From the NCBI GenBank assembly GCA_963682045.1, contig OY821326.1, forward strand, positions 1,293,211 to 1,357,210: a DNA stretch of 64,000 nt, in the 5' to 3' direction. Source of the stretch: Synergistaceae bacterium. GTDB taxonomy: Bacteria; Synergistota; Synergistia; Synergistales; Synergistaceae. Made by a program: the position numbers and the translations under genes. The notes beneath the pieces were generated by a model. It was not told where the DNA came from. It saw only the letters and a list, made by a program, of their open reading frames with translations, and made no database searches. Positions within the stretch are counted from its first letter, which is position 1, and each line of letters opens with the position of its first letter. Of this stretch, positions 4,410 to 59,664 are shown piece after piece.

Positions 4410-5009
4410 CTCAGGCTCCTTTCTGAAAATGGCCTCCGCATGAGTGTTCATCCACTCGGGGTGCTTGCTTTACACCCCTTAAAATAAAAAACAACCACCC
4501 GCCTTCCTCAGGGGAAAAGACAGGATAGTTGTACTTGATAGATGATCCCTACTTTAATTTGACTGATGTATTATACAAATATTGGTAGTTTATTTGAGCC
4601 TATACAGTAATATATACTTTTACTGCTCATGTCGACCATTCACAAGTACTCTAAACTTATGAACACAATTTCGCGGAGGTCTCCGCAACAAAATTTGAGC
4701 TCTGGCTCATCAACACGATATCACAATCGCTAGTTCGGCATTTGACCCGGCTGTCCGTATGGCCATTCGTATAACTGTAATACAGTTAGGTCAGATTTAA
4801 AGAATGCTTGACTTGGTTTGTGATGATAGACTTAAATACCCTACCCTCCTTATGACCGCTATCACTAGTCGTTTTTTACCATATAAAGCAAAATGTTGCA
4901 AGTAATTTTATGACGATTTGATACAATTGCGTAAATATGAGATATTCTTCACAGAGAACGTTCCGAACAAAAACATCATCAATAGATAAATCAGAAAGGG
5001 GTCTGTCCA

Positions 5010-28093: not shown

Positions 28094-28132
28094 TGCAACA
28101 TTGTTGCAAAACAAACCATGCTAATTTATAAT
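28094..28132 (+). promoter_or_regulatory. modA promoter with an overlapping perfect palindrome TGCAAC-ATT-GTTGCA
   Basis: The palindrome spans 28094-28108. The -35 TTGCAA (28104-28109), a 17-nt spacer and the -10 TATAAT (28127-28132) follow, so the right half-site overlaps the -35. Confidence 0.55.
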
Positions 28133-28169: not shown

Positions 28170-28994
28170 ATGAATATATTTAAAAGGTTATGCAATAGTA
28201 TTTTTACCATCGTTATTTGCGCAGTAATAGCTTTATCCATACCGGCAACAGCTTTTGCCCAGACAGAACTGACCGTATTTGCAGCAGCTTCCATGACAGA
28301 ATCAATGAAATTGGTTGCCGACCAATATAAAAAAACAGCCCCGGACGTTAAAATTATATATAATTTCGACTCCAGCGGTACGCTAAAAACTCAGATAGAA
28401 CAAGGTGCTTTTTGTGATGTTTTTGTTTCAGCAGGACAAAAACAGATGGATCAGTTAGACATAAACGCAAACCCCAAGGTCAATACGAAAAAGCTGGACT
28501 TTATAATGACTGGGACTCGATTCAATGTTGTCTCTAACAAAGTTGTACTCGTAGTTCCCAAAGGACACAACTCCAAGGGAATCAGTGATTTCAAAGATAC
28601 GCTGACCGATAAAGTTTTTATTATTGCACTCGGGAACTCAGATGTTCCTGTCGGCCAATACTCGGAAGAAGTTCTGAAGAGCCTTGGCATTTGGGATAAG
28701 CTAAAGAAAATGAATAAGATAAGCTACGGCAGCAACGTAAAAGAAGTACTTTCGCAAGTTGCTGCAGGAGCAGCTGACTGCGGAATGGTTTACAGTACGG
28801 ATGCTGCTACATCTAATGCGGTAGAAGTTGTTGCAGAGGCTCCCAAGGGCACGCACAGACCAATAACTTATCCTGTCGCTATTTTAAAAGAGACCCAAAA
28901 CCTCGAAGCAGCTACTGCATTTACCAATTTTCTTAAGGGGCCGGAGAGTATAAAGATTTTTACTGGAATCGGCTTTGCAATACCAAGCAAATAA
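28170..28994 (+). CDS. modA: molybdate ABC transporter substrate-binding protein
   Basis: 274 aa with a signal peptide and ModA-like sequence (LTVFAAASM...FDSSGTL...VPVGQY). Confidence 0.85.
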   Translation: MNIFKRLCNSIFTIVICAVIALSIPATAFAQTELTVFAAASMTESMKLVADQYKKTAPDVKIIYNFDSSGTLKTQIEQGAFCDVFVSAGQKQMDQLDINANPKVNTKKLDFIMTGTRFNVVSNKVVLVVPKGHNSKGISDFKDTLTDKVFIIALGNSDVPVGQYSEEVLKSLGIWDKLKKMNKISYGSNVKEVLSQVAAGAADCGMVYSTDAATSNAVEVVAEAPKGTHRPITYPVAILKETQNLEAATAFTNFLKGPESIKIFTGIGFAIPSK

Positions 28995-29079
28995 CGCAAT
29001 CCGATTAGAAAAAAATTCAAAAAGTGGCCATTCCGAAAACGGTCTGGCCACCTTTTGAATTACTGGATAGGGGTAAGAC

Positions 29080-29778
29080 ATGGACTGGTTTCCTCTTTAT
29101 AATTCGTTGCGCGTAGCATCGATCTCAACATTTATAACATTTTTCCTCGGAATATTTGCCGCGCACTACATTGCAAAAACACCTCGTTTTATCAAAGGAA
29201 TACTTGATGGCATTCTGACTTTACCTCTGGTTTTACCTCCTACTGTAATTGGATTTTTTCTGTTAAATATAATAGGCCCTCTGGGACCGGTGGGTTCGCG
29301 AGTTCTTGAGGTATTTGGCTTTAAATTGACGATGACATGGTATTCGGCTGTTTTTGCAACAACAATAATTTCCTTTCCCCTGATCTATCGTACAGCACGC
29401 GGCGCGTTTGAATCATTTGACAGTACACTGCTCTACTCAGGACAAACTCTCGGATTATCGAATACCTTCCTATTCTGGCGGGTCGTGATGCCTAACTGCA
29501 AACAGGGAATCCTGGCTGGCGCAGTTCTTGCTTTTGCGCGTGCGCTTGGAGAGTTCGGAGCTACAACCATGGTCTCAGGCTATATTCCAGGCAGAACCGC
29601 AATAATATCTACAACTGTATACCAACTTTGGAGAGAAGGAAACGATGCTCTTGCCTATAAGTGGGTATTTATAAATCTTATAATCTCGTTTATGGTATTA
29701 GTAACAGTAAACATGCTCGAAAATCGTTATAAACAGCCCATTGGGGCAGCGAAAGATCATTTTGAGCATGAAGATTAG
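29080..29778 (+). CDS. modB: molybdate ABC transporter permease
   Basis: 232 aa, CysTW/ModB-type permease (ARALGEFGATTMVSG). Confidence 0.85.
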   Translation: MDWFPLYNSLRVASISTFITFFLGIFAAHYIAKTPRFIKGILDGILTLPLVLPPTVIGFFLLNIIGPLGPVGSRVLEVFGFKLTMTWYSAVFATTIISFPLIYRTARGAFESFDSTLLYSGQTLGLSNTFLFWRVVMPNCKQGILAGAVLAFARALGEFGATTMVSGYIPGRTAIISTTVYQLWREGNDALAYKWVFINLIISFMVLVTVNMLENRYKQPIGAAKDHFEHED

Positions 29779-29786
29779 GGGTAAAA

Positions 29787-30857
29787 ATGTCAATATACGT
29801 TAAAATAATTAAATCGTTCGGTAATTTTGTCCTTAATACCGAATTTGAAGCGGAAAATGAGATCCTGGCTCTCCTGGGGTCTTCAGGTTCCGGCAAAAGC
29901 ATGACGTTGAAATGCATAGCCGGCATAGTCAAACCGGATAAAGGATGTATCGTTGTAGACGGCGTAACATTGTTTGATTCAGATAAGAAGATCAACCTGA
30001 GCCCTCAGGAAAGACATGTCGGACTGCTTTTCCAAAACTACGCCCTTTTTCCTAATATGACGGTGGAACAGAATCTTTATACCGTTCTGAAAAACTGTAA
30101 TGGTCAAAAGAACACAAAAGAACGGTTAGACCTCCTTCTGGAAAGTTTTTATTTAACAGGACTTGAAAAACATTATCCCGGACAGCTTTCAGGAGGGCAG
30201 CAGCAGCGTGTCGCACTTGCCAGGATCATGGCAAGCAGCCCCCAAATTATAATGCTCGATGAACCATTATCCGCACTTGACAGTTACCTGCGGTGGCAGG
30301 TGGAAAGGGAGCTTTCGGAAATCCTGGGCAAATTTAAAGGAACAACGCTTTATGTTTCCCATAATCGTGATGAAGTTTATAGGTTATGCCAGAAGGTATG
30401 TGTCATAAACAAAGGACATTCTGAAAAGGTAAATTCGGTCGACGAATTCTTCAATTCTCCATCAACACTAGCGTCAGCTTTGTTATCGGGATGCAAAAAC
30501 TACTCAAAAGCAGAAAAACTATCTCATAACACTGTGCATGCTTTCGACTGGAAGGTTAACTTAAGGTGTGATACCTTTATACCTGATGATACGAAATATA
30601 TTGGCGTACGTGCTCATAGAATTCTTCCTTTTCGCATGGGTGATGAATGCCAAAACAAAGTTATTTGCCGCGTACTTGAGGTCAGACATGATCTCTTTTC
30701 CGTTATTATTACACTAACACCTCAGGACGCTGATCCCAAAAAAGAATTTTCTCAAATTAGAATGGAACTGCCTTCTATTGAGAATAATTCTGTTCAGCCG
30801 GGAGATATTATGGCAGTAAACATCCCTACTGATATGATTATGCCCTTAAGAAAATAA
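29787..30857 (+). CDS. modC: molybdate ABC transporter ATP-binding protein with a C-terminal TOBE-like domain
   Basis: 356 aa with Walker A GSSGSGKS, signature LSGGQQQR and Walker B IMLDEPLSALD, plus a C-terminal ~120-aa extension. Confidence 0.8.
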   Translation: MSIYVKIIKSFGNFVLNTEFEAENEILALLGSSGSGKSMTLKCIAGIVKPDKGCIVVDGVTLFDSDKKINLSPQERHVGLLFQNYALFPNMTVEQNLYTVLKNCNGQKNTKERLDLLLESFYLTGLEKHYPGQLSGGQQQRVALARIMASSPQIIMLDEPLSALDSYLRWQVERELSEILGKFKGTTLYVSHNRDEVYRLCQKVCVINKGHSEKVNSVDEFFNSPSTLASALLSGCKNYSKAEKLSHNTVHAFDWKVNLRCDTFIPDDTKYIGVRAHRILPFRMGDECQNKVICRVLEVRHDLFSVIITLTPQDADPKKEFSQIRMELPSIENNSVQPGDIMAVNIPTDMIMPLRK

Positions 30858-31289
30858 GCATATTTCACCATGCCACATAAGAACAGCCCAAGAATTTATC
30901 TGCACTCCCAAAATCAGGCTTGTTGGTAATTGAGACAAAAAACCCCGAACGATTTCAGCAGCTTGTTCAGGTTGAAGCCGCAGGATGCCACCAAGGCCGT
31001 TTATTTCATTCCACGATTCTGTCACTTTTCTTCGTTTGAACCTTTTATTCTGAGCCGCTGTGGCTTGCAACTTTGCTCCTGGGATAAAAACTTTATATTG
31101 CAGGTTTTCATGTAACTTTTTACTCCTGTATCCTTTGTCGCAGTAAACGTCTTCCTGACAGCGGCCAGCCATTTCCTCCATCCGGTTCAGTGTGTCCGGC
31201 GGTGCGGTGACGTCATTCGGTGATCCCTTGTATCTCCTTGCTCCAGGTGCCCAATTGCCTTTCAGGATCGTTACTGATGCATTCAGCAA
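30846..31289 (-). pseudogene. DDE transposase C-terminal remnant (IS5/IS1182-like)
   Basis: The 147-aa ORF contains a DKGY motif and a degenerate downstream block. It has no N-terminal catalytic region and I found no inverted repeats. It abuts and overlaps the modC stop. Confidence 0.45.
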
Positions 31290-31561: not shown

Positions 31562-31584
31562 TAGATGCAACTTGGTTGCATCTA
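31562..31584. promoter_or_regulatory. perfect 10+3+10 palindrome TAGATGCAAC-TTG-GTTGCATCTA at the predicted start of the pruA transcript
   Basis: Read directly from the sequence. The core GCAAC-N3-GTTGC is shared with the modA, tup and Fur-operon sites. It may act as an operator or as a 5' stem-loop. Confidence 0.5.
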
Positions 31585-47950: not shown

Positions 47951-48973
47951 CTATTGTTTTATCTCTTGCTTTTCTTCTAACTTTTTTTCCAGCCTGAGCA
48001 GTTCGTTTCTGGTATCAGAATCCATATTCTTCATGATCTCGTTTCTATAGAGCATGCCAATGTCATTCCTGGAAAATCCCGGATGCGACTCAAGTTCGGT
48101 ATATGCGCTCACCTTTTTATCCTTAAAGAAAACATCAAAGTCTGCAAAACGCTGCCCCATCTCGTTGTATTCCAGTCCCATGGCTATCCTTTTGATCTCC
48201 TGCACTTCCATCGGTGTAAATATCTTCACAAGGTAGATTGGTACGCTCATCATTACCATAGCCTGGTCCTTGCCCCATCTTTCCGCAAGGACTACTCCTG
48301 CCTGGAGGCCCTGGGTGGCCATCCAGAGCCTCTGCCTGTGTATATCAAAATATCCGTTTGCGTCATATATTTTGATCTCGACATCATTCCAGTCAGGTGT
48401 ACCCATTGCATCTCCGAGATACTCTATCCCCCTGGTCCCCAGGTATTGGATAATTGCACCCTTTGACCTGTCATGTATCAGCAGCGCCTTTTCGTACATG
48501 TCGTTAGCGGAGACAGCTCTATTTATCGCTTTTGGAGTAAAATATACAACTGACGATGTCCCTGGTATGTAATTTCGAAACATCGGATCCCTGTCGATTA
48601 TTTCCCCGCCCAGATCTTCGTGTATCGCCCTGATACCGTTTTCTATATTGCCCATCAATCTCATCATTATGAAGCCCGGCATCATTTTGACCTCTTCAAC
48701 GCCGCTTATAAGCCTTTTGTTGATCAGAGTACAGAGAAGGAGTTCAATAGAATTTTCAGATACGAATGTTTCCTCTTCCTCTTCTTCGGTGAGCAGGTCA
48801 GGAGATGAAATAAAAAAAATCAGCCTCCTGTTGTTCCCATATATGCCCAGTGCTTTTTCAGGGTCCAGGGATACCAGTGAACCCCACTCATTGAGATATT
48901 TTTTAATTTCGGCAACCTTATCTGTTGCGTGGAGAACAAGACTTTCCGGACCGCTTCTGACAAGAGAGAGCAT
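47951..48973 (-). CDS. hypothetical protein (340 aa), no family recognised
   Basis: Long ORF, 16 nt downstream of the metallophosphoesterase gene. It has an acidic run (TEEEEEETF) and a C-terminal charged helical tail (LLRLEKKLEEKQEIKQ). Confidence 0.6.
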   Translation of the reverse strand: MLSLVRSGPESLVLHATDKVAEIKKYLNEWGSLVSLDPEKALGIYGNNRRLIFFISSPDLLTEEEEEETFVSENSIELLLCTLINKRLISGVEEVKMMPGFIMMRLMGNIENGIRAIHEDLGGEIIDRDPMFRNYIPGTSSVVYFTPKAINRAVSANDMYEKALLIHDRSKGAIIQYLGTRGIEYLGDAMGTPDWNDVEIKIYDANGYFDIHRQRLWMATQGLQAGVVLAERWGKDQAMVMMSVPIYLVKIFTPMEVQEIKRIAMGLEYNEMGQRFADFDVFFKDKKVSAYTELESHPGFSRNDIGMLYRNEIMKNMDSDTRNELLRLEKKLEEKQEIKQ

Positions 48974-48988
48974 TAAGAAAACCTCCCA

Positions 48989-49675
48989 TTATAATGATAT
49001 GCGTTTACGTTCGAGCCTGGCATCGTTGGTCCCCGGCGGATATTTGAAAGGGATCACATCTCCTGTTTCCATGTGTATCAGGTGCATTTTTTCAAGTCCG
49101 TTCAGAAAAAACCTTCCGCATTCATCTATAGAAGTAGGATGTTCCATACTGTGTCCAAAGAGGTTGTACTCTCCGGCATCGTTCATTACGTCCTCATAAG
49201 TATGACCGGCCCTGAAACGAAAACTTCCTATGTAAAAACGACCGGGCCTGCTCCATACCTGGATCGAAGAGTTCTCTGTCATTTCAAGCAAACTCGGAAG
49301 ATGGTCATGGTTTCCGGTAAGAAGGATGGCCCCACATGTTTCGTCAGTGAGCAGGTTCAAAAGCACACGAAGTTTTTTTCTGTAAAGATCTATCATGCCC
49401 GGCCTGGTCTCAAGCTTTATGTCATCTACGAGATCCCCTGTATGTACGATCCATGCCGGACGAAGACGCTGTATGGCTCTCCGCAGGTAGGGAAACATGG
49501 TCGAAGGGGTGTCAGAAATGTGAAGGATCATGTCCCTGCCGTCCAAAGGAGGAGGATTGAGGCCCGCCCGCACTGCAATATTATCTATTCTGCTCCTGAT
49601 AGGACAGTTTCTTATCTCCTCAAGCGTTGGCTTGGGCAGGTTGCTCGGCAAGTGCAGAGTCGTCATGTTCTTCAC
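48989..49675 (-). CDS. calcineurin-like metallophosphoesterase
   Basis: 228 aa with motifs HTGDLVDD, LTGNHDH and FGHS. The first motif reads HISDTPS, with no His where DxH is expected. Confidence 0.7.
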   Translation of the reverse strand: MKNMTTLHLPSNLPKPTLEEIRNCPIRSRIDNIAVRAGLNPPPLDGRDMILHISDTPSTMFPYLRRAIQRLRPAWIVHTGDLVDDIKLETRPGMIDLYRKKLRVLLNLLTDETCGAILLTGNHDHLPSLLEMTENSSIQVWSRPGRFYIGSFRFRAGHTYEDVMNDAGEYNLFGHSMEHPTSIDECGRFFLNGLEKMHLIHMETGDVIPFKYPPGTNDARLERKRISL

Positions 49676-49846
49676 CTCTTAAATTAAAAACCGGATTTAC
49701 ATCTGAACTTCTACTCAAAATCAAACCTTTTCCAATGATATTATAGCAGGAGGATGCATAAAAACCATTTCAAACTGCATGAGCACTTATGAACAAAATA
49801 CTTGTTTTTTTACCAGCCAACATGTAGGATAGCAAAAGTAATCGAT

Positions 49847-49932
49847 TGTTCTCCGAGCCTGTCCGCCTAAAGATATTATCCACGGGGGCCGGGCCGTTAG
49901 GGTTTCGCTGGAAACGGTGGAGCCTCCCTTTG
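49847..49932 (+). promoter_or_regulatory. Moco-class riboswitch-like aptamer (copy 1)
   Basis: P1 is gttctcc/ggagaac. It carries a 5' CCGAGCC and a 3' GGAGCCUCCC-UUU-GGAAAGGAG block, as I recall for the Moco RNA motif. It lies upstream of tungstate transporter genes. Confidence 0.6.
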
Positions 49933-49949
49933 GAAAGGAGAACGGCTGT

Positions 49950-49990
49950 CTGTATTTTATTCGGCCGTCTTCTCCAGTGAGGACGGCCGA
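49950..49990 (+). terminator. intrinsic terminator of riboswitch copy 1
   Basis: cggccgtc / gacggccg stem followed by ATTTCTGTTTTT. The 5' arm can alternatively pair with the P1 3' strand. Confidence 0.65.
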
Positions 49991-50033
49991 TTTCTGTTTT
50001 TAAGGGATATAATACAAAATCCCAACCCTCCCC

Positions 50034-50060
50034 TGCGAGATCGCCCCCAACGATCTCGCA
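50034..50060 (+). terminator. second terminator-like hairpin in the tup leader
   Basis: tgcgagatcg cccccaa cgatctcgca, a perfect 10-bp stem followed by TCTTCATTATTT. Confidence 0.4.
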
Positions 50061-50077
50061 TCTTCATTATTTATAAC

Positions 50078-50092
50078 TGCAATCAAGTTGCA
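50078..50092. promoter_or_regulatory. TGCAAT-CAA-GTTGCA near-palindrome in the tup leader
   Basis: Matches 11 of 12 positions of the TGCAAC-N3-GTTGCA motif. It lies between the two riboswitch-like elements. Confidence 0.4.
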
Positions 50093-50189
50093 AATAATAG
50101 TAAGTTTTCTTTTTTTCTCTTAAATTCACGACAAAAACAATTAAATAGTGTAGAATTACGTCTATGCCATATATTTTACTTTTATGGTT

Positions 50190-50313
50190 TTTGTCTCCTG
50201 ATCAAATCAAGAGACGACCCTGAATCTGTTTTTCCTGTAGCGCCTGCTATGGAAAACAGACGTTAGGGCGGATCTGGAAACGGATCCGTCTCCCATTGTG
50301 GAAAGGGGGCAAA
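50190..50313 (+). promoter_or_regulatory. Moco/Tuco-class riboswitch-like aptamer (copy 2, diverged)
   Basis: The 3' half aligns with copy 1 (cgttaggg...ctggaaacgg...gtctccc...gtggaaaggggg). P1 is tttgtctcc/gggggcaaa with two GU pairs. The 5' half differs and lacks CCGAGCC. It lies about 100 nt upstream of tupA. Confidence 0.45.
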
Positions 50314-50409
50314 TATTTCGCCACGTGCGATATCAATATCAATGCCCTCCTATTCTTCAAGGTCTCAAGGTTTTTAGCACCAATATATCTTTTAAGGAGG
50401 AGTATCCCC

Positions 50410-51261
50410 ATGAAAAGCAACAAGCGCTTCTTACTTTTCATCACCATCATTGCAGTATGCATGCTCACTTTGGGCTCATTTGCATACGCCAAACCGCCAG
50501 TTCTCAGAATGGCAACAACTACCAGCACCGACAATACAGGCCTTCTCGATTATATGGCTCCTATCCTGCTGAAGGATACAGGGATCGAGATCCAGTGGGT
50601 ATCCGTTGGAACAGGAAAGGCGCTTGAATACGGGCGTAACGGAGATGTTGACGTAGTCCTTACCCATGATCCGGCAGCCGAAGACAAGTTTATGGCAGAC
50701 GGCGCAGGTGTTAACCGACGTAAGGTCATGTACAACGACTTCGTACTGATCGGCCCCGCAAACGACCCGGCAGGTATAAAGGGCAAACCCATAACCCAGG
50801 CGATTGCGACAATAGCCGCGAAGGGACAGCCTCTCGTGAGCCGCGCGGACAAATCCGGCACACATTCAGCAGAACTTAAGCTTCTCAAAGCGGCCGGAGT
50901 CAAAAATTTCGACAAGGCGACCTGGTATGTACAGACAGGACAGGGAATGCTCAATACGATCAACATCGCTGATGAACGCAAGGGATACGCACTTGCTGAC
51001 AGAGGCACATTCATTAAATATGACGCAAATCTCAAAGGCAAACCGGGGCTCGTTATAGTAGTAGAGGGAGACAAACAGCTCCTAAACATGTACAGTGTTA
51101 TGGCTGTCAACCCTATCAAACACCCGCATGCAAAGTACGACCTTGCGATCAAGTACATCGACTGGATCACCTCTTCAAAGGTCCAGAAGGATATCGCAAA
51201 CTTCAAGCTTGAAGGCAAGCAGCTCTTCTTCCCCAACGCCGAAATCAGATCCGGACACTAG
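50410..51261 (+). CDS. tupA: tungstate ABC transporter substrate-binding protein
   Basis: 283 aa from ATG 50410 (AAGGAGG RBS) with a signal peptide and a TupA-type motif (RMATTTSTDNTGLLD). The longer track ORF extends into the leader RNA. Confidence 0.8.
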   Translation: MKSNKRFLLFITIIAVCMLTLGSFAYAKPPVLRMATTTSTDNTGLLDYMAPILLKDTGIEIQWVSVGTGKALEYGRNGDVDVVLTHDPAAEDKFMADGAGVNRRKVMYNDFVLIGPANDPAGIKGKPITQAIATIAAKGQPLVSRADKSGTHSAELKLLKAAGVKNFDKATWYVQTGQGMLNTINIADERKGYALADRGTFIKYDANLKGKPGLVIVVEGDKQLLNMYSVMAVNPIKHPHAKYDLAIKYIDWITSSKVQKDIANFKLEGKQLFFPNAEIRSGH

Positions 51262-51332
51262 GCTATCTTATATTATTCGACTGGACCGGGTCCCGCCGTC
51301 AGGACCCGGCCTGATTTTAAGGAGGGTACCGG

Positions 51333-52031
51333 GTGGATTTCATTATTCAAGGTTTTTTTCAATCCATAAGGCTTATTGCATCAATGGACGAGGAAACTCT
51401 GAATATAGTGCTTACGACCTTAAGGCTGACCGGCCTTTCCATGCTCTTTATCCTTGGACTCGGTCTGCCCCTGGGCTTTGCGCTGGGTTATTTCGATTTC
51501 CCAGGCAAACACCTTCTAAGAACCATATCTGATACCCTGCTTTCTCTTCCTACCGTTGTAGTAGGGCTGCTTGTTTATGCCTTCATATCGAGAAGAGGTC
51601 CCCTGGGTGATTTTCAGCTTCTTTTCACCATTCGCGGAATGGCGATAGGGCAGATCACACTAGGGCTGCCGATCGTTATTTCTTATACGGCCACTGCTAT
51701 AGAAGGCCTTGACAACAGACTGAAACTTACTCTGCAGACACTCGGGGCTTCAGGCGCAAAACTTGCGGTAACAAGCCTTTGGGAAGGGCGTTTTCAGGTC
51801 CTTGTCGCCGCGCTAACCTCCTACGGAAGAATCATAGGAGAGGTAGGTTCAGCAATGATGCTGGGCGGAAACATTAAATGGCACACAAGAACGATAACAA
51901 CTGCAATCACACTTGAAACAGGCAAGGGAGATTTCGCACTGGGAATTGCCCTGGGTATCGTTCTGCTCTCAATTTCATTAGTATTGAACATCTCCCTCTC
52001 CTTCCTTAGGAGAAGAGTGGGAAACAGCTAG
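51333..52031 (+). CDS. tupB: tungstate ABC transporter permease
   Basis: 232 aa, GTG start behind AAGGAGGG, ABC permease fold. Confidence 0.8.
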   Translation: MDFIIQGFFQSIRLIASMDEETLNIVLTTLRLTGLSMLFILGLGLPLGFALGYFDFPGKHLLRTISDTLLSLPTVVVGLLVYAFISRRGPLGDFQLLFTIRGMAIGQITLGLPIVISYTATAIEGLDNRLKLTLQTLGASGAKLAVTSLWEGRFQVLVAALTSYGRIIGEVGSAMMLGGNIKWHTRTITTAITLETGKGDFALGIALGIVLLSISLVLNISLSFLRRRVGNS

Positions 52032-52065
52032 GAAAAAATATTTAACATACTACGGAGGAAACTCA

Positions 52066-53094
52066 TTGGACCCGAAGATCATTTATGAGATCAAAAACCT
52101 GACTCACAGCTACGGGAAAGGACCTCAGACCATCCATATCGACTATCTGAAAATATGTGAGGGCAGCGTAACCGGAATCGTAGGCCCCAACGGAAGTGGA
52201 AAATCAACTCTTCTGAGGGTACTGGCTTTCCTTGAACCATACACAGGCGGTTCACTTTTTTTCGGCGGTCTCGATCCTTCCGGTAGTGAGGTCGACAAAA
52301 GAAAAAACGTAACATATCTCCTTCAAAACTCCTATCTCCTGAAAAGGTCCGTTTTTGAAAACATAGCATATGGGCTGCGGCTGAGAAATGAGACTGAGGA
52401 CCTCAAGGAAGGGGTTTTTGATTCTCTTGAAAGAGTAGGGCTATCCCCATCAAAATTTGCCCATAGGCCTTGGTACAGACTCTCCGGCGGTGAAGTCCAG
52501 CGTGTGGCCCTGGCCGCAAGGCTGGCGCTCCATCCCAAAGTACTTATCCTTGACGAACCTACCGCAAACGTTGATGAATCAAGCGCTCTGCTAGTTAAGG
52601 AGGCTGCTGTGTCGGCATGGAAAGAATGGGGAACAACCGTAATAGTAGCCACTCACGACATTCCCTGGCTTACCGAGGTATCTACGGACATAATAAGTCT
52701 TTTCCGTGGAAAAATAGTCGGACACGGGACCGAAAACCTGATACACGGACCATGGATCAGGGAGAACGGAAGCGTGGTCAAAACACTAACCGACGGACAG
52801 AAGATCCATGCACTCATAAATGAAGCGGCGGAACTTCACGCAGCAGTGCTAAACCCTTCGGATATCGAGCTGATAACGGATAGCGAAATAGTCTCTTTAT
52901 ATGCGAACAGGCTCAGGGGAACGGTCACAAGCATGGCGCTTGAGAGAGCAACCGGATCAGCCCTTATTTCAGTTCAGACAGGCGATATTATCCTGAAGTC
53001 AAGGATGCCGGTCGAAAAAATAAAAGAAGTACAGATCTCCCCTGCATCAGAAGTCACTCTGTCCTTTTCACCGGAAGACGTCCGCTGGATTTAG
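52066..53094 (+). CDS. tupC: tungstate ABC transporter ATP-binding protein
   Basis: 342 aa with Walker A GPNGSGKST, signature LSGGEVQR and Walker B LILDEPTANVD, plus a C-terminal extra domain. Confidence 0.8.
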   Translation: MDPKIIYEIKNLTHSYGKGPQTIHIDYLKICEGSVTGIVGPNGSGKSTLLRVLAFLEPYTGGSLFFGGLDPSGSEVDKRKNVTYLLQNSYLLKRSVFENIAYGLRLRNETEDLKEGVFDSLERVGLSPSKFAHRPWYRLSGGEVQRVALAARLALHPKVLILDEPTANVDESSALLVKEAAVSAWKEWGTTVIVATHDIPWLTEVSTDIISLFRGKIVGHGTENLIHGPWIRENGSVVKTLTDGQKIHALINEAAELHAAVLNPSDIELITDSEIVSLYANRLRGTVTSMALERATGSALISVQTGDIILKSRMPVEKIKEVQISPASEVTLSFSPEDVRWI

Positions 53095-53219: not shown

Positions 53220-55046
53220 ATGTGCGGCATCATGGGATATATTGGAGATAGAGACACAACTAAGGTTATCCTAGAAGGGCTGGCAAAACATGAATACAGG
53301 GGCTATGACTCTGCAGGAATAGCCGTTATAAAAGATGGCGTTATCCATGAGCTCCGTACCACAGGAAGGGTCTGCCAGCTTGCAGAAAAAGTCGCAAAAG
53401 AACATTTCAACGGAGATTTCGGCATTGGCCACACCAGATGGGCAACACACGGCGGGGTAACCGAAAACAACGCCCATCCTCATATGAGCAGCGACAATAA
53501 GGTGGTCCTGGTCCACAACGGTATAATTGAGAATGCGAGAGAGATCAGAACTGACCTTGAAGCTGCCGGGATAAAATTCCACACTGAGACAGACACTGAA
53601 TCAGCGGTCCAGTACCTCGCCTCAGTCTACAGCGGAGACCCGAAGGAAGCCATAGTCAAACTTACAAAGAGAATAAGAGGCGCTTTTGCCCTTGTGATAA
53701 TGTTTCATGATAAACCAAATGAAATATGGGTGGCGAGAAAAGGTTCGCCGCTGGTAGTCGGACATGCAGGAGAAGAGGGTTTCTGCGCTTCCGACCCAAC
53801 CGCATTGCTGGAATTCACCAGGGATGTCTGGTTCATGGACGACAACGAGATCGCAATGATATCAAAAGACGGCTGCACTTTCTACGATTTCGACGGAAAC
53901 CAGCACGACAAGGAATCCATGCATCTGGACTGGGAAGCTGCTATGACCAGCAGAGGAAATTACCCGCACTTTATGCTGAAGGAAATACATGAGCAACCGG
54001 AAGTAGTTACTCATACTCTTCTTGGAAGGGTCGCCTGCAACAGTGTAGACCTCAGTCATGAGCTTGACTGGACACCGGAACAGATATCAGGATGGAAAAA
54101 GATCCATTTTGTCGCCTGCGGCACCTCACATTATGCAACGATGGTCGCAGCGCGCATAATGGAGGAGGTCGGAAACTTCGAGATAAGGACCGAGGTCGCC
54201 TCGGAATACCGCTACAGGAATATCCCCATCGGACCCGACACCCTCGCCGTATTCGTATCCCAGTCAGGGGAAACGGCCGACACTCTGCATGCGGCAAGGC
54301 TTGCCAAAGCAAAAGGAGCAAAATGCATCGTCGTGACAAATGTGCGGGGATCGACTATCCACCGTGAGGTTGGTGAAGCACTGATAACACCGGCCGGACC
54401 CGAAATAGGCGTGGCCGCGACAAAGACATTCATGGCTCAGATTACGGTACTCACCCTTCTGGGGCTTTACCTTTCAAAGCTGAAAAACGAACTCTGCCCG
54501 GAAACTGAGCAAAGGATCGTTTCTGCGCTGATGGACATACCTGCCAAGCTCGCTTCGATCCTGGAAAAAGAAAAGGAGATAGAGGCTGTGGCCAGGAATT
54601 TTGCTGAGGCAAGAGGCTTCTTTTTTATTGGAAGAGGTCTGGCCTATCCGCCCGCACTGGAGGGCGCACTTAAACTAAAAGAGATCTCCTATCTGCACGC
54701 TGAGGCATACCCGGCAGGAGAGATGAAGCACGGACCTATCGCGCTGCTCGGCAAAGAACTCCCGGTGGTTGCGCTTGTACCCAAAAACAACCTTTGGGAA
54801 AAGACCATTTCGAACATTGAAGAATCAATGGCAAGGAACTCGCCGATAATAGCTCTTGCAACAGAGGGAGATACTGAAATTGAACACTATTCAAAAAATG
54901 TCATATTCACGCCCGAAACCGAGCCGGAGCTGTTCCCCTTTATTGCGGTCGTGCCGCTGCAGCTTTTTGCTTACTACATCGCAAGGCAGCGCGGCTGTGA
55001 TATAGACATGCCCAGAAACCTTGCCAAGTCAGTGACGGTGGAATAA
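53220..55046 (+). CDS. glmS: glutamine--fructose-6-phosphate aminotransferase
   Basis: 608 aa from ATG 53220 (MCGIMGYIG, the Ntn Cys2). It has two SIS domains and ends in KSVTVE. Confidence 0.95.
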   Translation: MCGIMGYIGDRDTTKVILEGLAKHEYRGYDSAGIAVIKDGVIHELRTTGRVCQLAEKVAKEHFNGDFGIGHTRWATHGGVTENNAHPHMSSDNKVVLVHNGIIENAREIRTDLEAAGIKFHTETDTESAVQYLASVYSGDPKEAIVKLTKRIRGAFALVIMFHDKPNEIWVARKGSPLVVGHAGEEGFCASDPTALLEFTRDVWFMDDNEIAMISKDGCTFYDFDGNQHDKESMHLDWEAAMTSRGNYPHFMLKEIHEQPEVVTHTLLGRVACNSVDLSHELDWTPEQISGWKKIHFVACGTSHYATMVAARIMEEVGNFEIRTEVASEYRYRNIPIGPDTLAVFVSQSGETADTLHAARLAKAKGAKCIVVTNVRGSTIHREVGEALITPAGPEIGVAATKTFMAQITVLTLLGLYLSKLKNELCPETEQRIVSALMDIPAKLASILEKEKEIEAVARNFAEARGFFFIGRGLAYPPALEGALKLKEISYLHAEAYPAGEMKHGPIALLGKELPVVALVPKNNLWEKTISNIEESMARNSPIIALATEGDTEIEHYSKNVIFTPETEPELFPFIAVVPLQLFAYYIARQRGCDIDMPRNLAKSVTVE

Positions 55047-55850: not shown

Positions 55851-57137
55851 ATGAAAGGTCGTACAGATGTAATAGTAGGCGTTCAGTGGGGAGACGAGGG
55901 CAAGGGACGCGTAGTCGACGCACTTGCAGGCAAGTCAGGCGTAGTAGTCCGTTATCAGGGCGGAGCGAATGCAGGACATACCGTGGTAGTTGAGGACGAA
56001 AAATATGTCTTTCACTTACTCCCTTCCGGCATCCTCTATCCCGGCAAAGTTTGTGTGATCGGAAACGGGGTAGTGATAGACCCTGAAACGCTCTTTGCAG
56101 AACTTGACGATCTCAGGGATAGGGGAAAGACCCTTGCCAGGCTGGTCGTCAGCCATGGCGCACATGTGGTCATGCCGTATCACAAACAGCTGGACAAACT
56201 GGCTGAGGGAGCAAGGTCAGAGGGCACGAAGATAGGAACTACCGGACGTGGGATCGGTCCATGTTACTCCGATAAGTTCGAGAGGGTCGGGATAAGGGCG
56301 GAGGATCTTGTAAACCCGGAAATTCTGAAAGAAAAACTTCTGATAAACATCGAACTTAAAAATAAGATCCTGACAAAGATCTATGGCTCCGAGCCCTTGG
56401 ATCTCAAGAGTACGTACGAGACAGCCCTTGAGTGGGGCAAAAGGATAAAGCCGCTTCTTGGAGACGCTTTCCTTGAGATACACCGAGCACTTGATTCAGG
56501 AAAGAACGTCCTCTTCGAAGGAGCCCAGGGGACCCTCCTTGATGTCGACCACGGAACATATCCTTTTGTCACGAGCTCCAGCCCATGCTCCGGAGGAGCC
56601 TGCACCGGAGCGGGGATAGGACCGGGGAGGATAGACCGTGTGATAGGAGTCACCAAGGCTTACTGCACCAGAGTAGGAGAGGGTCCCTTCCCTACCGAGG
56701 ATAGGGGATCTCTCGGAGAACTGTTAAGAACAAGAGGCGGGGAGTTCGGCGCTACGACCGGCCGTCCAAGGCGCTGTGGCTGGAACGATCTTGTGGCAGT
56801 AGACTACGCGGTAAAGATAAATGGAATAGACGGGCTTGCGCTGACAAAGCTTGATGTCCTTTCAGGATTTGAAAGGATCCAGGTCTGCACTGCTTATGAT
56901 ATCGAAGGGGCCATACATAAGAATTTTCCAAGCAGCTGTGCGAAACTGGCAAAAGCAGTCCCGGTTTTTGAGGAACTACCGGGCTGGAAGGAGGATATTA
57001 GCAAGTGCAGAAGATTTGAGGATCTTCCCTCTGCTGCACAGGACTATGTCCGCTTCATCGAAGAAAGGGTACTGACCCCCGTCGTACTTATCGGAGTCGG
57101 ACAGGGAAGAGAAGATACTATCCTGAGAGGTATATGA
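55851..57137 (+). CDS. purA: adenylosuccinate synthetase
   Basis: 428 aa from ATG 55851 (GVQWGDEGKGRVVD, GTTGRGIGP). Confidence 0.95.
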   Translation: MKGRTDVIVGVQWGDEGKGRVVDALAGKSGVVVRYQGGANAGHTVVVEDEKYVFHLLPSGILYPGKVCVIGNGVVIDPETLFAELDDLRDRGKTLARLVVSHGAHVVMPYHKQLDKLAEGARSEGTKIGTTGRGIGPCYSDKFERVGIRAEDLVNPEILKEKLLINIELKNKILTKIYGSEPLDLKSTYETALEWGKRIKPLLGDAFLEIHRALDSGKNVLFEGAQGTLLDVDHGTYPFVTSSSPCSGGACTGAGIGPGRIDRVIGVTKAYCTRVGEGPFPTEDRGSLGELLRTRGGEFGATTGRPRRCGWNDLVAVDYAVKINGIDGLALTKLDVLSGFERIQVCTAYDIEGAIHKNFPSSCAKLAKAVPVFEELPGWKEDISKCRRFEDLPSAAQDYVRFIEERVLTPVVLIGVGQGREDTILRGI

Positions 57138-57623
57138 AGCTAAAATTTATGGACTGCATTGCTTCTGCCAAATCTGGAAATGTAAAAATGATGAAAACCG
57201 GGGAAAATAGAAAAACAGTAATTGTAAGAGGCGGCGGAGATCTTGCCACAGGCATAATATACAGGCTATGGAGATCCTGTTTTGATGTTTTGTGCCTTGA
57301 GATCCCCCGCCCCACTGTTGTAAGGCGTTTCGTTGCTGCAGCCCGGGCTGTTTATGACGGAAACTGCCGGATAGAAGATATGGATGTATGTCTGGCGGAG
57401 AACCCTGATCAAATAGACTTCAGCAAAGAGATAAACGTATTGATAGACCCGGAGGGAAATTCCATCGCTTTACTCAAACCCTTCGCTGTCATTGATGCGA
57501 TGATGTCGAAAAGAAAGACAGCGACAAACAAAAATATGGCAGACCTTGTGCTGGCGATAGGGCCGGGCTTCAGTGCACCTGAAGATGTTCATGGGATCGT
57601 TGAGACAAAGAGAGGGCATTCTC
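57134..57623 (+). pseudogene. YqeB-family (selenium-dependent molybdenum hydroxylase system) gene, 5' part, interrupted by an IS
   Basis: VIVRGGGDLATGIIYRLWRSCFDVLCLEIPRPTVVRR is collinear with the C-terminal half of E. coli YqeB (VVIRGAGDIASGVALRLYHAGFKVIMLEVEKPTVIR). The frame runs into the IS end at 57624 and stops at 57640. Confidence 0.75.
57411..57623 (+). repeat. left copy of the 213-bp direct target duplication
   Basis: Identical by eye to 59665-59877. Confidence 0.85.
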
Positions 57624-59664
57624 CTGACTTTAGAACTTAAGAGGTCAAAAAGTGCCACAAGCTCTGTCTAACAGCTGATTTAGTCGTTTTAATTTTATCC
57701 TGTTATTTCAGATTAATACTCAAATCGAGCTTGGTACAGGCCCGGAACTTAGTCAGGGTCATGTTCGTTTTCATGTTAGACATTCCCAGCAAACCTGCCA
57801 GATTTAGGTAGGTCTGGGTGATGCGGGTTGGTGTGACGACACAGCGTGGAAATTCTCCCTGCACCAAAACCAACGGCTCTCGAATTGCTTCCATAATAGT
57901 CCTAGCTGACACTGACACCTGCTTTTCTGTCTCCAGCAGGTATTGAGCATAGCGGAGCATACAGAGGGATATGAAACACATGGCAAAATGACCCTTAATG
58001 TGTTTGTCAGACCAGACAAAAACAGGTCGGGCTCTTAAATCACTCTTCAGTATTCGGAAGCTCTCTTCAATTTTCCACAGACCTCCGTAAATTTTACATA
58101 CACTTTGCGTATCCAGCTCCAGATTATTGGTTATAACCGCATAGTATCCGTCATAGCGGGCAGCTTCCTCGATCTTAGATTCATCCAAGCTCCAGTTCTC
58201 CGTGTCGAGTTCCATCTGAAGAAACTGATTGCCGCCGCGCCGGATAGCCGCTTTCAACTGGTAGGGCTTGTCTAGCTTTTTCCTCAGTCGTTCAAGCATC
58301 CGCTCCCGGTCTCCCCGATCTTTCTCAGCACGTTTGGCCGACCACGTTAGATGAATCTTCACCAGGATCTCCACTTCGCGTAACGTTCGTGGCCGTCCCC
58401 GCTTGCCTGTTACCTCACGTTCTTCCTCGGAAAGCGGCAGCCTTACCTTAAGGGAATCTCCGACCACTTTGGAGCGAAACGTCACGGCATCGCCTTCTTT
58501 GCTATCATCGTGCCATCCAGCTTCTGACCATACCAGTTCTTTGAAGATCTGCGGGGCTCGCTTCAGTGTGTAGCTGATTACAAAATCATGGCCACTGCTG
58601 TACAGGTATTCCAGATTGTTTCCACTATTGAGTCCTCGGTCAGCGACCACTATTATTTTTTCCAAACGATATAAGTTTTTGAGCTTCTCGATGGATTGCA
58701 CCAGGGTGTTCTGGTCCATAGTATTTCCAGGAAATAATTCGTAGGTGATAGGTATGCCGTTGTTGTCCATAAGCAACCCCATTACTACCTGCACTTCGTT
58801 GTTTTTATGATCCTTGGAGAATCCGAACATCCGCAGTTCACCCCAGTGTGTGCTTTCAAAGGCATAAGTTGTGACATCGTAGAAGGCTTCTGGTCCCTGT
58901 CTATTGGTTTTACGTTCGAAAAAGCGTGATAAATGTTCTATCACCGCAGATTTCTGCTCAGACAGTATATCTAGGACGTCATACAGCACATCCAGACTTA
59001 GCGGGTTCACACCGGCATAGGTAGGCAACTCCTTAACACAAGCATGTACGCTGGCCGGTTCGGCACAGCGATGGGCTGCCAGATAGTAGATCGCCTGGGC
59101 TACAGTCTCAGCATTACGCTTCCCAGACTTGGTTACGAAGAAGGTGTCCAGATCCATTTGCTGCCAAATTTGCTTAACCAAACCATGCCCGAATTGAAAA
59201 GAAGGCACCACATCGTCAGGTTTTAAGATATCGCCCACTGGTACTTCTAGAGTGATGGGTGCCCCTGCGGCCTTTTTCTCACGAGTCAGGCGTGCTGCCT
59301 CCAGCTTTAGCTTTGCAACGACATCCGGGTCCTCGGCAAGCATTTTCTCGTAGTTGCCGATGGTTTTTACAACATGAGTTTTCTTTTTACTTGTGCCAGG
59401 AATATGTGTTTCCTCTCTAAACTGGATGACGCGCGACTTACCGTAACCGGAGATTGCAACGTACATAGGGGACCCCTCGCTTCTGTAAAATATAAATAAA
59501 CATGTGCAAGGTCATTATACCACAAAATGAGCTAAAAAGCAGGATATAGCAGGACAAAAATAAACAAAGTTTTTTGTAAATAAAAAACCCCCGAAACCGC
59601 CTTATTACAGCGTATTCGAAGGATTGATGGCAGTGGTTATAGGGCGTTAAGTTCCAAAGTCAGG
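57624..59664 (-). mobile_element. IS1634-family insertion sequence (about 2.04 kb)
   Basis: The terminal inverted repeats are (C)CTGACTTTAGAACTTAA at the left end and (C)CTGACTTTGGAACTTAA as the reverse complement of the right end. It has a single 587-aa transposase ORF and is flanked by a 213-bp direct duplication of the target gene. Confidence 0.85.
57703..59466 (-). CDS. IS1634-family (IS4 superfamily) transposase
   Basis: 587 aa. The N-terminus (YVAISGYGKSRVIQFREE...KTIGNYEKM) and the length are typical of IS1634-family transposases. Confidence 0.7.
   Translation of the reverse strand: MYVAISGYGKSRVIQFREETHIPGTSKKKTHVVKTIGNYEKMLAEDPDVVAKLKLEAARLTREKKAAGAPITLEVPVGDILKPDDVVPSFQFGHGLVKQIWQQMDLDTFFVTKSGKRNAETVAQAIYYLAAHRCAEPASVHACVKELPTYAGVNPLSLDVLYDVLDILSEQKSAVIEHLSRFFERKTNRQGPEAFYDVTTYAFESTHWGELRMFGFSKDHKNNEVQVVMGLLMDNNGIPITYELFPGNTMDQNTLVQSIEKLKNLYRLEKIIVVADRGLNSGNNLEYLYSSGHDFVISYTLKRAPQIFKELVWSEAGWHDDSKEGDAVTFRSKVVGDSLKVRLPLSEEEREVTGKRGRPRTLREVEILVKIHLTWSAKRAEKDRGDRERMLERLRKKLDKPYQLKAAIRRGGNQFLQMELDTENWSLDESKIEEAARYDGYYAVITNNLELDTQSVCKIYGGLWKIEESFRILKSDLRARPVFVWSDKHIKGHFAMCFISLCMLRYAQYLLETEKQVSVSARTIMEAIREPLVLVQGEFPRCVVTPTRITQTYLNLAGLLGMSNMKTNMTLTKFRACTKLDLSINLK

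Follow-up and report, generated by a model that had tools for sequence, protein, structure and literature searches.

Within the 64-kb window analysed here, a stretch of contig OY821326.1 from a Synergistaceae bacterium, the operon at 50410-53094 is tupABC, which encodes a tungstate ATP-binding cassette (ABC) transporter. The products of its three genes carry the domains PBP_like_2, BPD_transp_1 and ABC_tran, and their best NCBIfam matches are to TupA (E 7.9e-96), TupB (3.2e-81) and TupC (1.2e-47), all three falling below the strict equivalog cut-offs. The intergenic region of 740 nucleotides (nt) ahead of the operon, bounded upstream by a metallophosphoesterase gene in divergent orientation (48989-49675), contains two aptamers of the molybdenum cofactor/tungsten cofactor (Moco/Tuco) riboswitch family. 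The upstream aptamer and the hairpin behind it, at 49839-49990, are the main subject of this analysis. From its sequence this element is judged to be, probably though far from certainly, a functional P3-less "Tuco-type" riboswitch with a transcription-terminating OFF platform, which forms the upstream unit of a tandem tupABC leader.

The leader is predicted to be a composite of about 600 nt, in which promoter P1, aptamer 1, terminator T1, hairpin 2 (HP2), a palindrome where present, promoter P2, aptamer 2, an anti-Shine-Dalgarno/Shine-Dalgarno (anti-SD/SD) pair and tupA follow one another in an order conserved across the Synergistaceae. Its architecture is modular, with module 1 comprising promoter P1, aptamer 1, T1, a spacer and HP2, and module 2 comprising the palindrome, promoter P2, aptamer 2, the anti-SD/SD pair and tupABC. 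Promoters P1 and P2 are named as such throughout and are distinct from the aptamer helices P1 and P2. The features are the following, each with the evidence on which it was called:

49801-49830, plus strand: predicted promoter P1, with a -35-like cTTGTTT (49802-49807), a 17-nt spacer and a -10-like TG-TAGGAT (49823-49830); conservation.
49839-49956, plus strand: aptamer 1, a P3-less Moco/Tuco aptamer; RF01055 match and covariation.
49937-49975, plus strand: predicted antiterminator, helix P1 3' strand and linker GGAGAACGGCUG (49937-48) with the T1 5' arm CGGCCGUCUUCUCC (49962-75); duplex energy.
49961-50001, plus strand: terminator T1, a 12-bp hairpin (49961-49990) and the U-tract TTTCTGTTTTT; terminator scan and covariation.
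50002-50033, plus strand: C-rich, G-poor spacer (ACAAAAUCCCAACCCUCCCCU) between T1 and HP2; alignments.
50034-50072, plus strand: HP2, a 10-bp stem (50034-43 / 50051-60), the 7-nt loop CCCCCAA (50044-50) and the T-rich tail TCTTCATTATTT; covariation.
50078-50092, no strand: palindrome TGCAATcaaGTTGCA, TGCAAT-N3-GTTGCA, upstream of promoter P2; conservation.
50128-50156, plus strand: predicted internal promoter P2, with the box TAGTGTAGAAT (50146-50156), a -10 TAGAAT (50151-56) and a weak -35 ACGACA (50128-33); conservation.
50206-50324, plus strand: aptamer 2, a P3-less RF01055 aptamer; 56.3 bits, E 8e-11.
50344-50402, plus strand: predicted platform of aptamer 2, in which the anti-SD GCCCUCCU (50344-51) pairs either with the aptamer 3' strand GGAAAGGGGGC or with the Shine-Dalgarno sequence AAGGAGGAG (50394-50402); folds.
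50410-51261, plus strand: tupA, first gene of tupABC.
51333-52031, plus strand: tupB, second gene.
52066-53094, plus strand: tupC, third gene.

The identity of aptamer 1 is established by a scan of the whole 64-kb window with the Moco/Tuco riboswitch model RF01055 (Rfam gathering threshold 36 bits), which returned 49839-49956 with 75.2 bits and an E-value of 2.4e-16 over model positions 1-135; both aptamer matches were reproduced in a local Rfam scan. The Moco-class aptamer that a model had proposed from the letters of this DNA (hereafter the sequence-only reading) is confirmed by this result. The resemblance it saw to the E. coli moaA leader is not, since the aptamer has no P3 (model positions ~58-74 are deleted in both RF01055 alignments); by this absence and by the tupABC genes downstream, aptamer 1 is placed in the P3-less "Tuco-type" subgroup instead. 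Helix P1 is formed by gttctcc (49848-49854) and ggagaac (49937-49943), which close an element of 96 nt; the pairing had been recognised correctly, although with its strands at 49847-49853 and 49926-49932 and a length of ~86 nt. The CCGAGCC that had been noticed after the 5' strand lies at 49853-59, and the conserved 3' block is likewise present as GGAGCCTCCC (49919-28) and GGAAAGGAG (49932-40).

The core of aptamer 1, made up of CUCCGAGCC, GCCUCCC and GGAAAGG, is invariant in all orthologues. Helix P4 is capped by a GAAA tetraloop, the GGAAAC loop being invariant, and the tetraloop receptor CCUAA(A/G)...(C/U)A(U/C)GG is present in helix P2. Compensatory changes were found in 11 of the 27 predicted pairs among 17 orthologues, in helices P2 and P4, while the sequence of helix P1 barely varies and is therefore uninformative for covariation. 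With 58-80 bits across all of the ~38 loci, aptamer 1 is the best-conserved part of the region. The minimum free energy (MFE) z-score of 49839-50075 is -3.85; taken with the E-values of both aptamers and the compensatory changes in T1 and HP2 described below, this places the observation far beyond chance.

Directly downstream of the aptamer, the T1 hairpin comprises 12 pairs, 8 of them G-C, with a folding energy of -23.1 kcal/mol, and is followed by TTTCTGTTTT. Its arms cggccgtc and gacggccg lie at 49962-69 and 49982-89; the sequence-only reading had described the same arms and T-rich tract, placing the arms at 49951-58 and 49971-78. In 20 loci the T1 helix is 93% paired, four pairs are changed on both sides, and the G-U pairs fit the plus strand. 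Competing with this hairpin, ggagaacggctg (49937-48) can pair with cggccgtcttctcc (49962-75) in a duplex of 7+5 bp around a 2-nt bulge, at -19.5 kcal/mol (RNAduplex). This alternative pairing had also been foreseen, bulge included, as 6+6 bp and at other coordinates. Since the 3' strand of helix P1 and the linker can pair with the T1 5' arm instead, closure of helix P1 and antitermination are mutually exclusive, and riboswitch 1 reads as a transcriptional OFF switch.

The ligand-OFF logic put forward in the sequence-only reading withstands comparison, as its energies reproduce and the exclusive pairings are kept in all lineages examined, including those with differing terminator sequences. Antiterminator potential was found or read in every one of these lineages and amounts to about -11 to -21 kcal/mol in 28 of 30 distinct sequences. 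In loci L085 and L095 the T1 sequence differs and the automated split mis-parsed the terminator (-2.5); there, GGAG:CUCC and CGGC:GCCG pairings were read by eye. The linker CGGCUG and the arm GGCCG are invariant or nearly so in the alignment. Homologous loci thus do show the expected compensatory changes, both within helices of the aptamer and within the terminator.

The sequence-only reading had regarded the element as lacking a gene directly behind it. Its outer span of 49847-49990 and the distance of 420 nt from the end of the terminator to the next ATG (50410) are correct, as are the second hairpin (50034-50060 and a T-rich tail), the palindrome (50078-50092) and the second aptamer (50206-50324) seen within this distance. 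The element is nonetheless not an orphan: the apparent lack of a gene is explained by its position as the first of two riboswitches in a long conserved leader. The arrangement is a tandem, in that a single leader contains two complete aptamers with separate platforms, and it is conserved in ~38 loci. Small open reading frames (ORFs) or a leader peptide in the gap between the aptamers were also considered and rejected, the ORFs being just 20-44 amino acids (aa) long with many indels among orthologues.

The distribution of the tandem was followed in TupA-anchored loci, one genome per species, scanned with Rfam, among which matches to metagenome-assembled genomes (MAGs) at 98% identity place the window in the Synergistaceae, a family common in gut and anaerobic-digester communities. 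In this genome set the tandem is complete in 20 loci and partial in 2, over a range of TupA identity that starts at 98% and reaches ~75% (73-75%) at its lower end; MAGs of Synergistes, Cloacibacillus and Caccocola are among them. When metagenomes were scanned for a 22-base pattern taken from the 3' core of aptamer 1, in module 1, 18 loci were obtained, of which 17 contain both aptamers and the last is cut by a contig end. Occurrence of module 1 in other gene contexts was rejected, as all 18 are tupA leaders. Overall the tandem pair occurs in ~38 Synergistaceae loci, and module 1 is in each case co-oriented with tupA and directly upstream of it, never elsewhere. Among the other riboswitch-bearing loci scanned, a single canonical P3-less aptamer precedes tupA in L025, in a Thermovirgaceae locus (L026), in Acetomicrobium (L027) and in a Bacillota MAG (L057); a terminator-like hairpin with a T-run was read by eye after the lone aptamer of L025 and L026, the two platforms covered by this comparison. 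Because these relatives outside the tandem loci carry a single canonical P3-less aptamer, control of tupA by an aptamer of the aptamer 1 type appears ancestral.

Two deviations from the usual leader were encountered in this survey. In L016 (2390-2700) and L088, which share the same sequence, an insertion of ~300 nt separates HP2 from the palindrome and promoter P2, giving a gap of 543 nt compared with ~200-250 nt elsewhere; both modules are intact, and no convincing ORF was found in the insertion. In L084 (4255-4340), a metagenome contig diverges right after HP2, inside the palindrome, and ends 85 nt later; its diverged tail has no match in the other loci compared, and insertion, rearrangement or a break in the assembly could each account for the divergence. 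Many Synergistaceae tandem leaders, although not all, share synteny with the divergent gene pair seen here on the minus strand (47951-49675), which encodes a metallophosphoesterase of 225-228 aa and a 340-aa protein that matches nothing in Pfam or NCBIfam.

Upstream of aptamer 1, a CTTGT...17 nt...TGTA(G/A/C/T)nAT element is conserved across 21 loci, those with a different upstream gene included, and ends 17 nt ahead of the helix P1 stem. CTTGT-17 nt-TGTAGGAT (49801-49830) is taken on this basis as the putative promoter P1. Downstream of T1, the spacer retains CACAAAAUC(C/U)C and a CUCC-like block in most lineages and leads to HP2, a strongly covarying hairpin. The HP2 stem is 94.8% paired across 31 distinct sequences, and nine of its ten pairs vary in both partners; 30 of the 31 carry an N-CCCCAA loop. 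Its covariation value of 0.826 compares with 0.28 in shuffles and ≤0.19 for slid registers. As G-U pairs outnumber A-C pairs 18 to 4, HP2 is a plus-strand RNA structure, and transcription from the minus strand is disfavoured by the same counts. HP2 is flagged as terminator-like by the terminator scan and looks like a moderate intrinsic terminator.

Several other identities were considered for HP2. A dispersed repeat or common terminator type was rejected, as CCCCCAAC occurs once in the window and a covariance model of the hairpin found at most one copy per source, always at the same position, in 40 of 99 sources (681 kb), with nothing else below E = 0.8 in those 681 kb. A known RNA family was likewise rejected, since Rfam, scanned permissively over 49680-50420 with E-values up to 10, gave the two RF01055 matches and eukaryotic-family noise. 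A role as a DNA element of promoter P2 was discarded because the distance to that promoter ranges from 53 to ~390 nt, in contrast to a constant distance to aptamer 1. No antiterminator or other alternative pairing was found for HP2, nor does the leader hold a conserved stretch complementary to its loop over 6 nt or more, as a pseudoknot or kissing interaction would need.

The second candidate promoter is marked by the box TAGTGTAnAAT, which is invariant throughout the 20 aligned loci, recurs in each of the 17 metagenome loci that reach past it, and was also listed as promoter-like. The variable third position is consistent with a -10 hexamer. In L018 and L023 the box stands 10-26 nt upstream of a lone aptamer 2 match, with nothing like aptamer 1 or HP2 present. 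Since these relatives with aptamer 2 alone also keep the box, it is read as an internal promoter, predicted promoter P2. Seven of the ten TGTAnAAT/TGTAGGAT boxes in the window fall in the intergenic 15% of the DNA, and similar boxes stand ahead of aptamer 1 and of glmS. At glmS, ATAATGTAGAAT (53141-52), which resembles the -10 of promoter P2, lies just upstream. The ORF of this gene is listed from 53151; its start is probably near 53220, as the family match begins at residue 24-25. A glmS ribozyme was not detected at this gene.

The palindrome upstream of promoter P2 is kept in about half of the lineages, namely the window-like, L009, L010/12, L014, L016 and L085/95 lineages. In its exact form, TGCAA-N5-TTGCA, it occurs three times in the window: in the leader (50078-50092), at 28094-28108, where it overlies the -35 region of the promoter of modABC (a molybdate transporter, 28170-30857), and at 31566-31580, in the 5' leader of a pyrroline-5-carboxylate (P5C) dehydrogenase gene, in the longer form AGATGCAAC-TTG-GTTGCATCT. 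With up to one mismatch, eight matches were counted in the window against 3.5 expected. The palindrome is a candidate operator for a transcription factor common to molybdenum and tungsten uptake. No Moco riboswitch precedes modABC in the window. A regulator gene was looked for beside the third copy; the 147-aa ORF at 30846-31289 (minus strand), between modC and the P5C-dehydrogenase gene, has a weak DDE transposase match and was set aside as a transposase fragment. Three features of the 250-nt gap between the aptamers, the TAGTGTAnAAT box, the palindrome shared with modABC and HP2, appear to be undescribed.

Aptamer 2 has no terminator. It shows compensatory changes in 13 of 29 pairs (16 orthologues), again in helices P2 and P4, and keeps CUCCC, GGAAAGG and the GAAA loop with its receptor. 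It departs from aptamer 1 in the J1/2 junction, where CCCUGAAUC takes the place of CUCCGAGCC, and UCUCCC replaces CCUCCC. In orthologous copies of aptamer 2, J1/2 is CC(C/U)UGAAnC or similar, compared with the invariant CUCCGAGC, and UCUCCC often stands for CCUCCC. In every locus aptamer 2 scores ~20 bits below aptamer 1, and its affinity or specificity may differ. Its platform is of another kind: a C/U-rich anti-SD located 35-60 nt upstream of the Shine-Dalgarno sequence is kept in every lineage, and both alternative pairings of the anti-SD were seen in the minimum-energy folds of ~30 distinct orthologous platforms. Riboswitch 2 therefore reads as a translational OFF switch of the SD-sequestering kind.

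Taking these features together, a mechanism can be proposed. Binding of the cofactor, with Tuco as the presumed ligand of both aptamers, would close helix P1 (49848-54 / 49937-43) and free the T1 5' arm, and transcription from promoter P1 would stop near 50000. When no ligand is bound, the 3' strand of helix P1 and the linker would pair with the T1 5' arm as an antiterminator, and RNA polymerase would read on. The tupABC mRNA would come from two sources: promoter P2, which is probably under transcription-factor control and would add mRNA bypassing aptamer 1, and read-through from promoter P1 past T1 and HP2. Cofactor-bound aptamer 2 would release the anti-SD, which would shut off translation of all tupABC mRNA. 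The activity of both promoters and the extent of read-through past HP2 are deduced here from sequence features. That the finished cofactor should repress the import of tungstate by feedback is physiologically sensible.

A number of points weigh against this mechanism. The terminator-like HP2 stands between aptamer 1 and tupA, with a stem of -16 to -32 kcal/mol and 3-8 U in the next 10 nt. Its distance to the core of aptamer 1 is fixed (105-121 nt), in contrast to a variable distance to promoter P2 (53-101 nt mostly, 387-392 nt in L016/L088), which suggests that module 1 may form a transcription unit closed in itself. Predicted promoter P2 appears self-sufficient in L018 and L023, two Synergistaceae loci that carry module 2 alone. 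With HP2 and promoter P2 standing in the way, transcripts from promoter P1 may feed tupABC or may end as a riboswitch-gated non-coding RNA. To our knowledge, no P3-less aptamer has biochemically shown binding of Tuco or Moco, the link made in 2008 being a correlation.

The same points favour an alternative in which module 1 is a separate, riboswitch-gated non-coding RNA comparable to EutX/Rli55, with tupABC expressed from promoter P2 alone. In the presence of cofactor, an RNA of ~160 nt ending at T1 would be made, and in its absence one of ~235 nt ending at HP2, whose exposed C-rich spacer and CCCCAA loop would bind a protein or G-rich (Shine-Dalgarno-like) mRNAs in trans. Module 1 has a promoter-like element of its own and two successive terminator-like hairpins, and contains no ORF; in HP2, the loop is invariant, the stem covaries, the tail is U-rich and the distance from aptamer 1 is fixed, and no conserved stretch of 6 nt or more in the leader could pair with the loop in cis. 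The independence of the modules is also suggested by promoter P2 and aptamer 2 standing alone in L018 and L023, and by the insertion in L016/L088, which parts HP2 from promoter P2 with neither module lost. A precedent by analogy for a decoy small RNA (sRNA) truncated by a riboswitch is found in EutX/Rli55 (PMC5821096). Nonetheless, module 1 is co-oriented with tupA and directly upstream of it in all ~38 loci, whereas EutX, which acts in trans, may lie in the opposite orientation to its targets (PMC5821096), and relatives without the tandem have the same aptamer type before tupA with no second aptamer, in L025 and L026 followed by a terminator-like hairpin. The U-tract of HP2 is imperfect and the hairpin has no identified binding partner or target. 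A separate non-coding RNA is thus considered unlikely, if still worth weighing. The more specific proposals, that the upstream unit could be a tungsten-cofactor-gated sRNA (a "tungsten-sparing" riboregulator whose CCCCAA loop would capture a regulatory protein or G-rich ribosome-binding sites, like EutX/Rli55 or sRNAs with C-rich seeds), or that HP2 could be a new protein- or ligand-responsive attenuator motif, are regarded as similarly doubtful.

An invariant loop is unusual for a passive terminator, and the candidate operator in common with modABC suggests control by several signals. HP2 might accordingly be a second, factor-controlled attenuator, at which a protein or RNA would read the CCCCAA loop and set termination by another signal (for example tungstate/molybdate), so that transcripts from promoter P1 would need two permissive signals. 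With no antiterminator pairing for HP2 and no candidate gene for an RNA-binding regulator conserved beside the tandem locus, where the upstream neighbours in many loci are the metallophosphoesterase and the 340-aa protein, this is deemed improbable. The two aptamers could also sense different ligands (for example Tuco and Moco or a precursor), acting as a two-input gate and not as a sharper single-input switch. The divergent J1/2 of aptamer 2 (CC(C/U)UGAAnC and its variants against CUCCGAGC), the frequent UCUCCC and the lower scores in every locus would fit such a division. Both aptamers are, however, P3-less and share GGAAAGG, the CUCCC core and the GAAA loop with its receptor, and J1/2 of aptamer 2 varies among lineages and is not fixed on a new consensus; the chance of distinct ligands is accordingly rated as low. 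The attenuator and the two-ligand gate are compatible with the tandem OFF-switch mechanism. That aptamer 1 is a decaying, functionless duplication remnant, as the lack of an ORF directly downstream and its absence from L018 and L023 might suggest, can be dismissed as contradicted by its conservation (the best of the region, at 58-80 bits), its compensatory stem changes and the preservation of core, antiterminator linker and terminator.

Elsewhere in the window, two observations were made in passing. At 4735-4793 on the minus strand there is a match to RF02440 (SpF59 sRNA/ldcC RNA) of 54.1 bits against a threshold of 37.2, which is unexpected in the Synergistaceae and is near-identical to the consensus in its 3' half. 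At 57134-59466, a yqeB-like ORF (selenium-dependent Mo-cofactor maturation) of 168 aa matches the first 138 of 256 profile positions and is directly followed, on the other strand, by an IS1634-family transposase (57703-59466); the gene has probably been truncated by insertion of this insertion sequence.

With this annotation the apparent orphan is accounted for, and tungstate uptake in the Synergistaceae can be placed under feedback control by the cofactor. The predicted internal promoter implies that the two riboswitches would act on partly different mRNA populations, a feature absent from the standard "digital tandem" models. HP2, a small RNA structure that has strong support and an unvarying loop, offers a handle on whether the read-through products of riboswitches have roles of their own, while the palindrome shared with modABC points to a factor that may co-regulate molybdenum and tungsten uptake. 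The riboswitch annotation itself is routine and confident; the inter-aptamer hairpin and predicted promoter lift the finding slightly above routine.

The division of the Moco RNA family by P3 has been described previously, with the P3-less RNAs tracking Tuco metabolism through a correlation and not through binding (Regulski et al., 2008; PMC2408646). A search of the available literature collection for recent work on Tuco-type or tandem Moco riboswitches found nothing beyond this 2008 description. Aptamer 1 agrees with the P3-less subgroup of RF01055 in its full-length model match, its P1, P2 and P4 helices, with covariation in P2 and P4, the GAAA tetraloop with a CCUAA...AUGG-type receptor, the CCGAG, CCUCCC and GGAAAGG core, the absence of P3, the position upstream of a tungstate transporter and the intrinsic-terminator platform. 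It differs in its host, as the Synergistaceae are not among the groups named in the abstract of that paper (PMC2408646). Tandem and triple P3-less Moco RNAs with terminators of their own have been known since 2008, and the arrangement itself is not new. In Syntrophomonas wolfei, three P3-less Moco RNAs in series, with terminators after the first two, precede a long gap and then a Mo/W-transport operon (PMC2408646). The present leader shares with the S. wolfei and Geobacter metallireducens loci the serial P3-less aptamers, the Mo/W-transport operon, termination after upstream aptamers and the long gap before the first ORF; the present pair, in contrast, uses two platforms, a terminator and then SD sequestration. 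An invariant promoter-like box and an invariant-loop hairpin lie between the present aptamers, neither being mentioned for S. wolfei, and the literature search found no description of an internal promoter or of HP2, the S. wolfei locus being compared by its published description alone.

Module 1 resembles the adenosylcobalamin (AdoCbl)-riboswitch decoy sRNA EutX/Rli55 (PMC5821096) in its anatomy, with its own predicted promoter, an aptamer, a terminator that the ligand would stabilise, a conserved hairpin that would be reached by read-through only and no ORF. EutX acts through a dual hexaloop ANTAR site, for which EutV is the partner, whereas HP2 consists of one hairpin whose C-rich loop has 7 nt (N-CCCCAA), which makes it an analogue and not a member of that family; EutX also need not share the orientation of its targets, while module 1 always shares that of tupA. 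Module 2 resembles E. coli moaABCDE, where ModE/FNR promoters are combined with a translational Moco riboswitch (PMC2408646), in that a putative promoter with a candidate operator is followed by a Moco-family aptamer that would hide the ribosome-binding site. The E. coli aptamer, however, has P3 and controls cofactor synthesis genes, and the E. coli ModE site differs from the operator candidate TGCAA-N5-TTGCA. For the leader as a whole, a counterpart is found in the tandem thiamine pyrophosphate (TPP) riboswitches of Bacillus anthracis tenA, as related in PMC2408646 and bioRxiv 10.1101/2024.10.15.618519 (Welz and Breaker, 2007), where two complete riboswitches of the same class have their own platforms and a steeper, "digital" response has been proposed. 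In those accounts both tenA switches terminate one transcript, whereas in the tupABC leader the predicted internal promoter would let some mRNA bypass the first switch.

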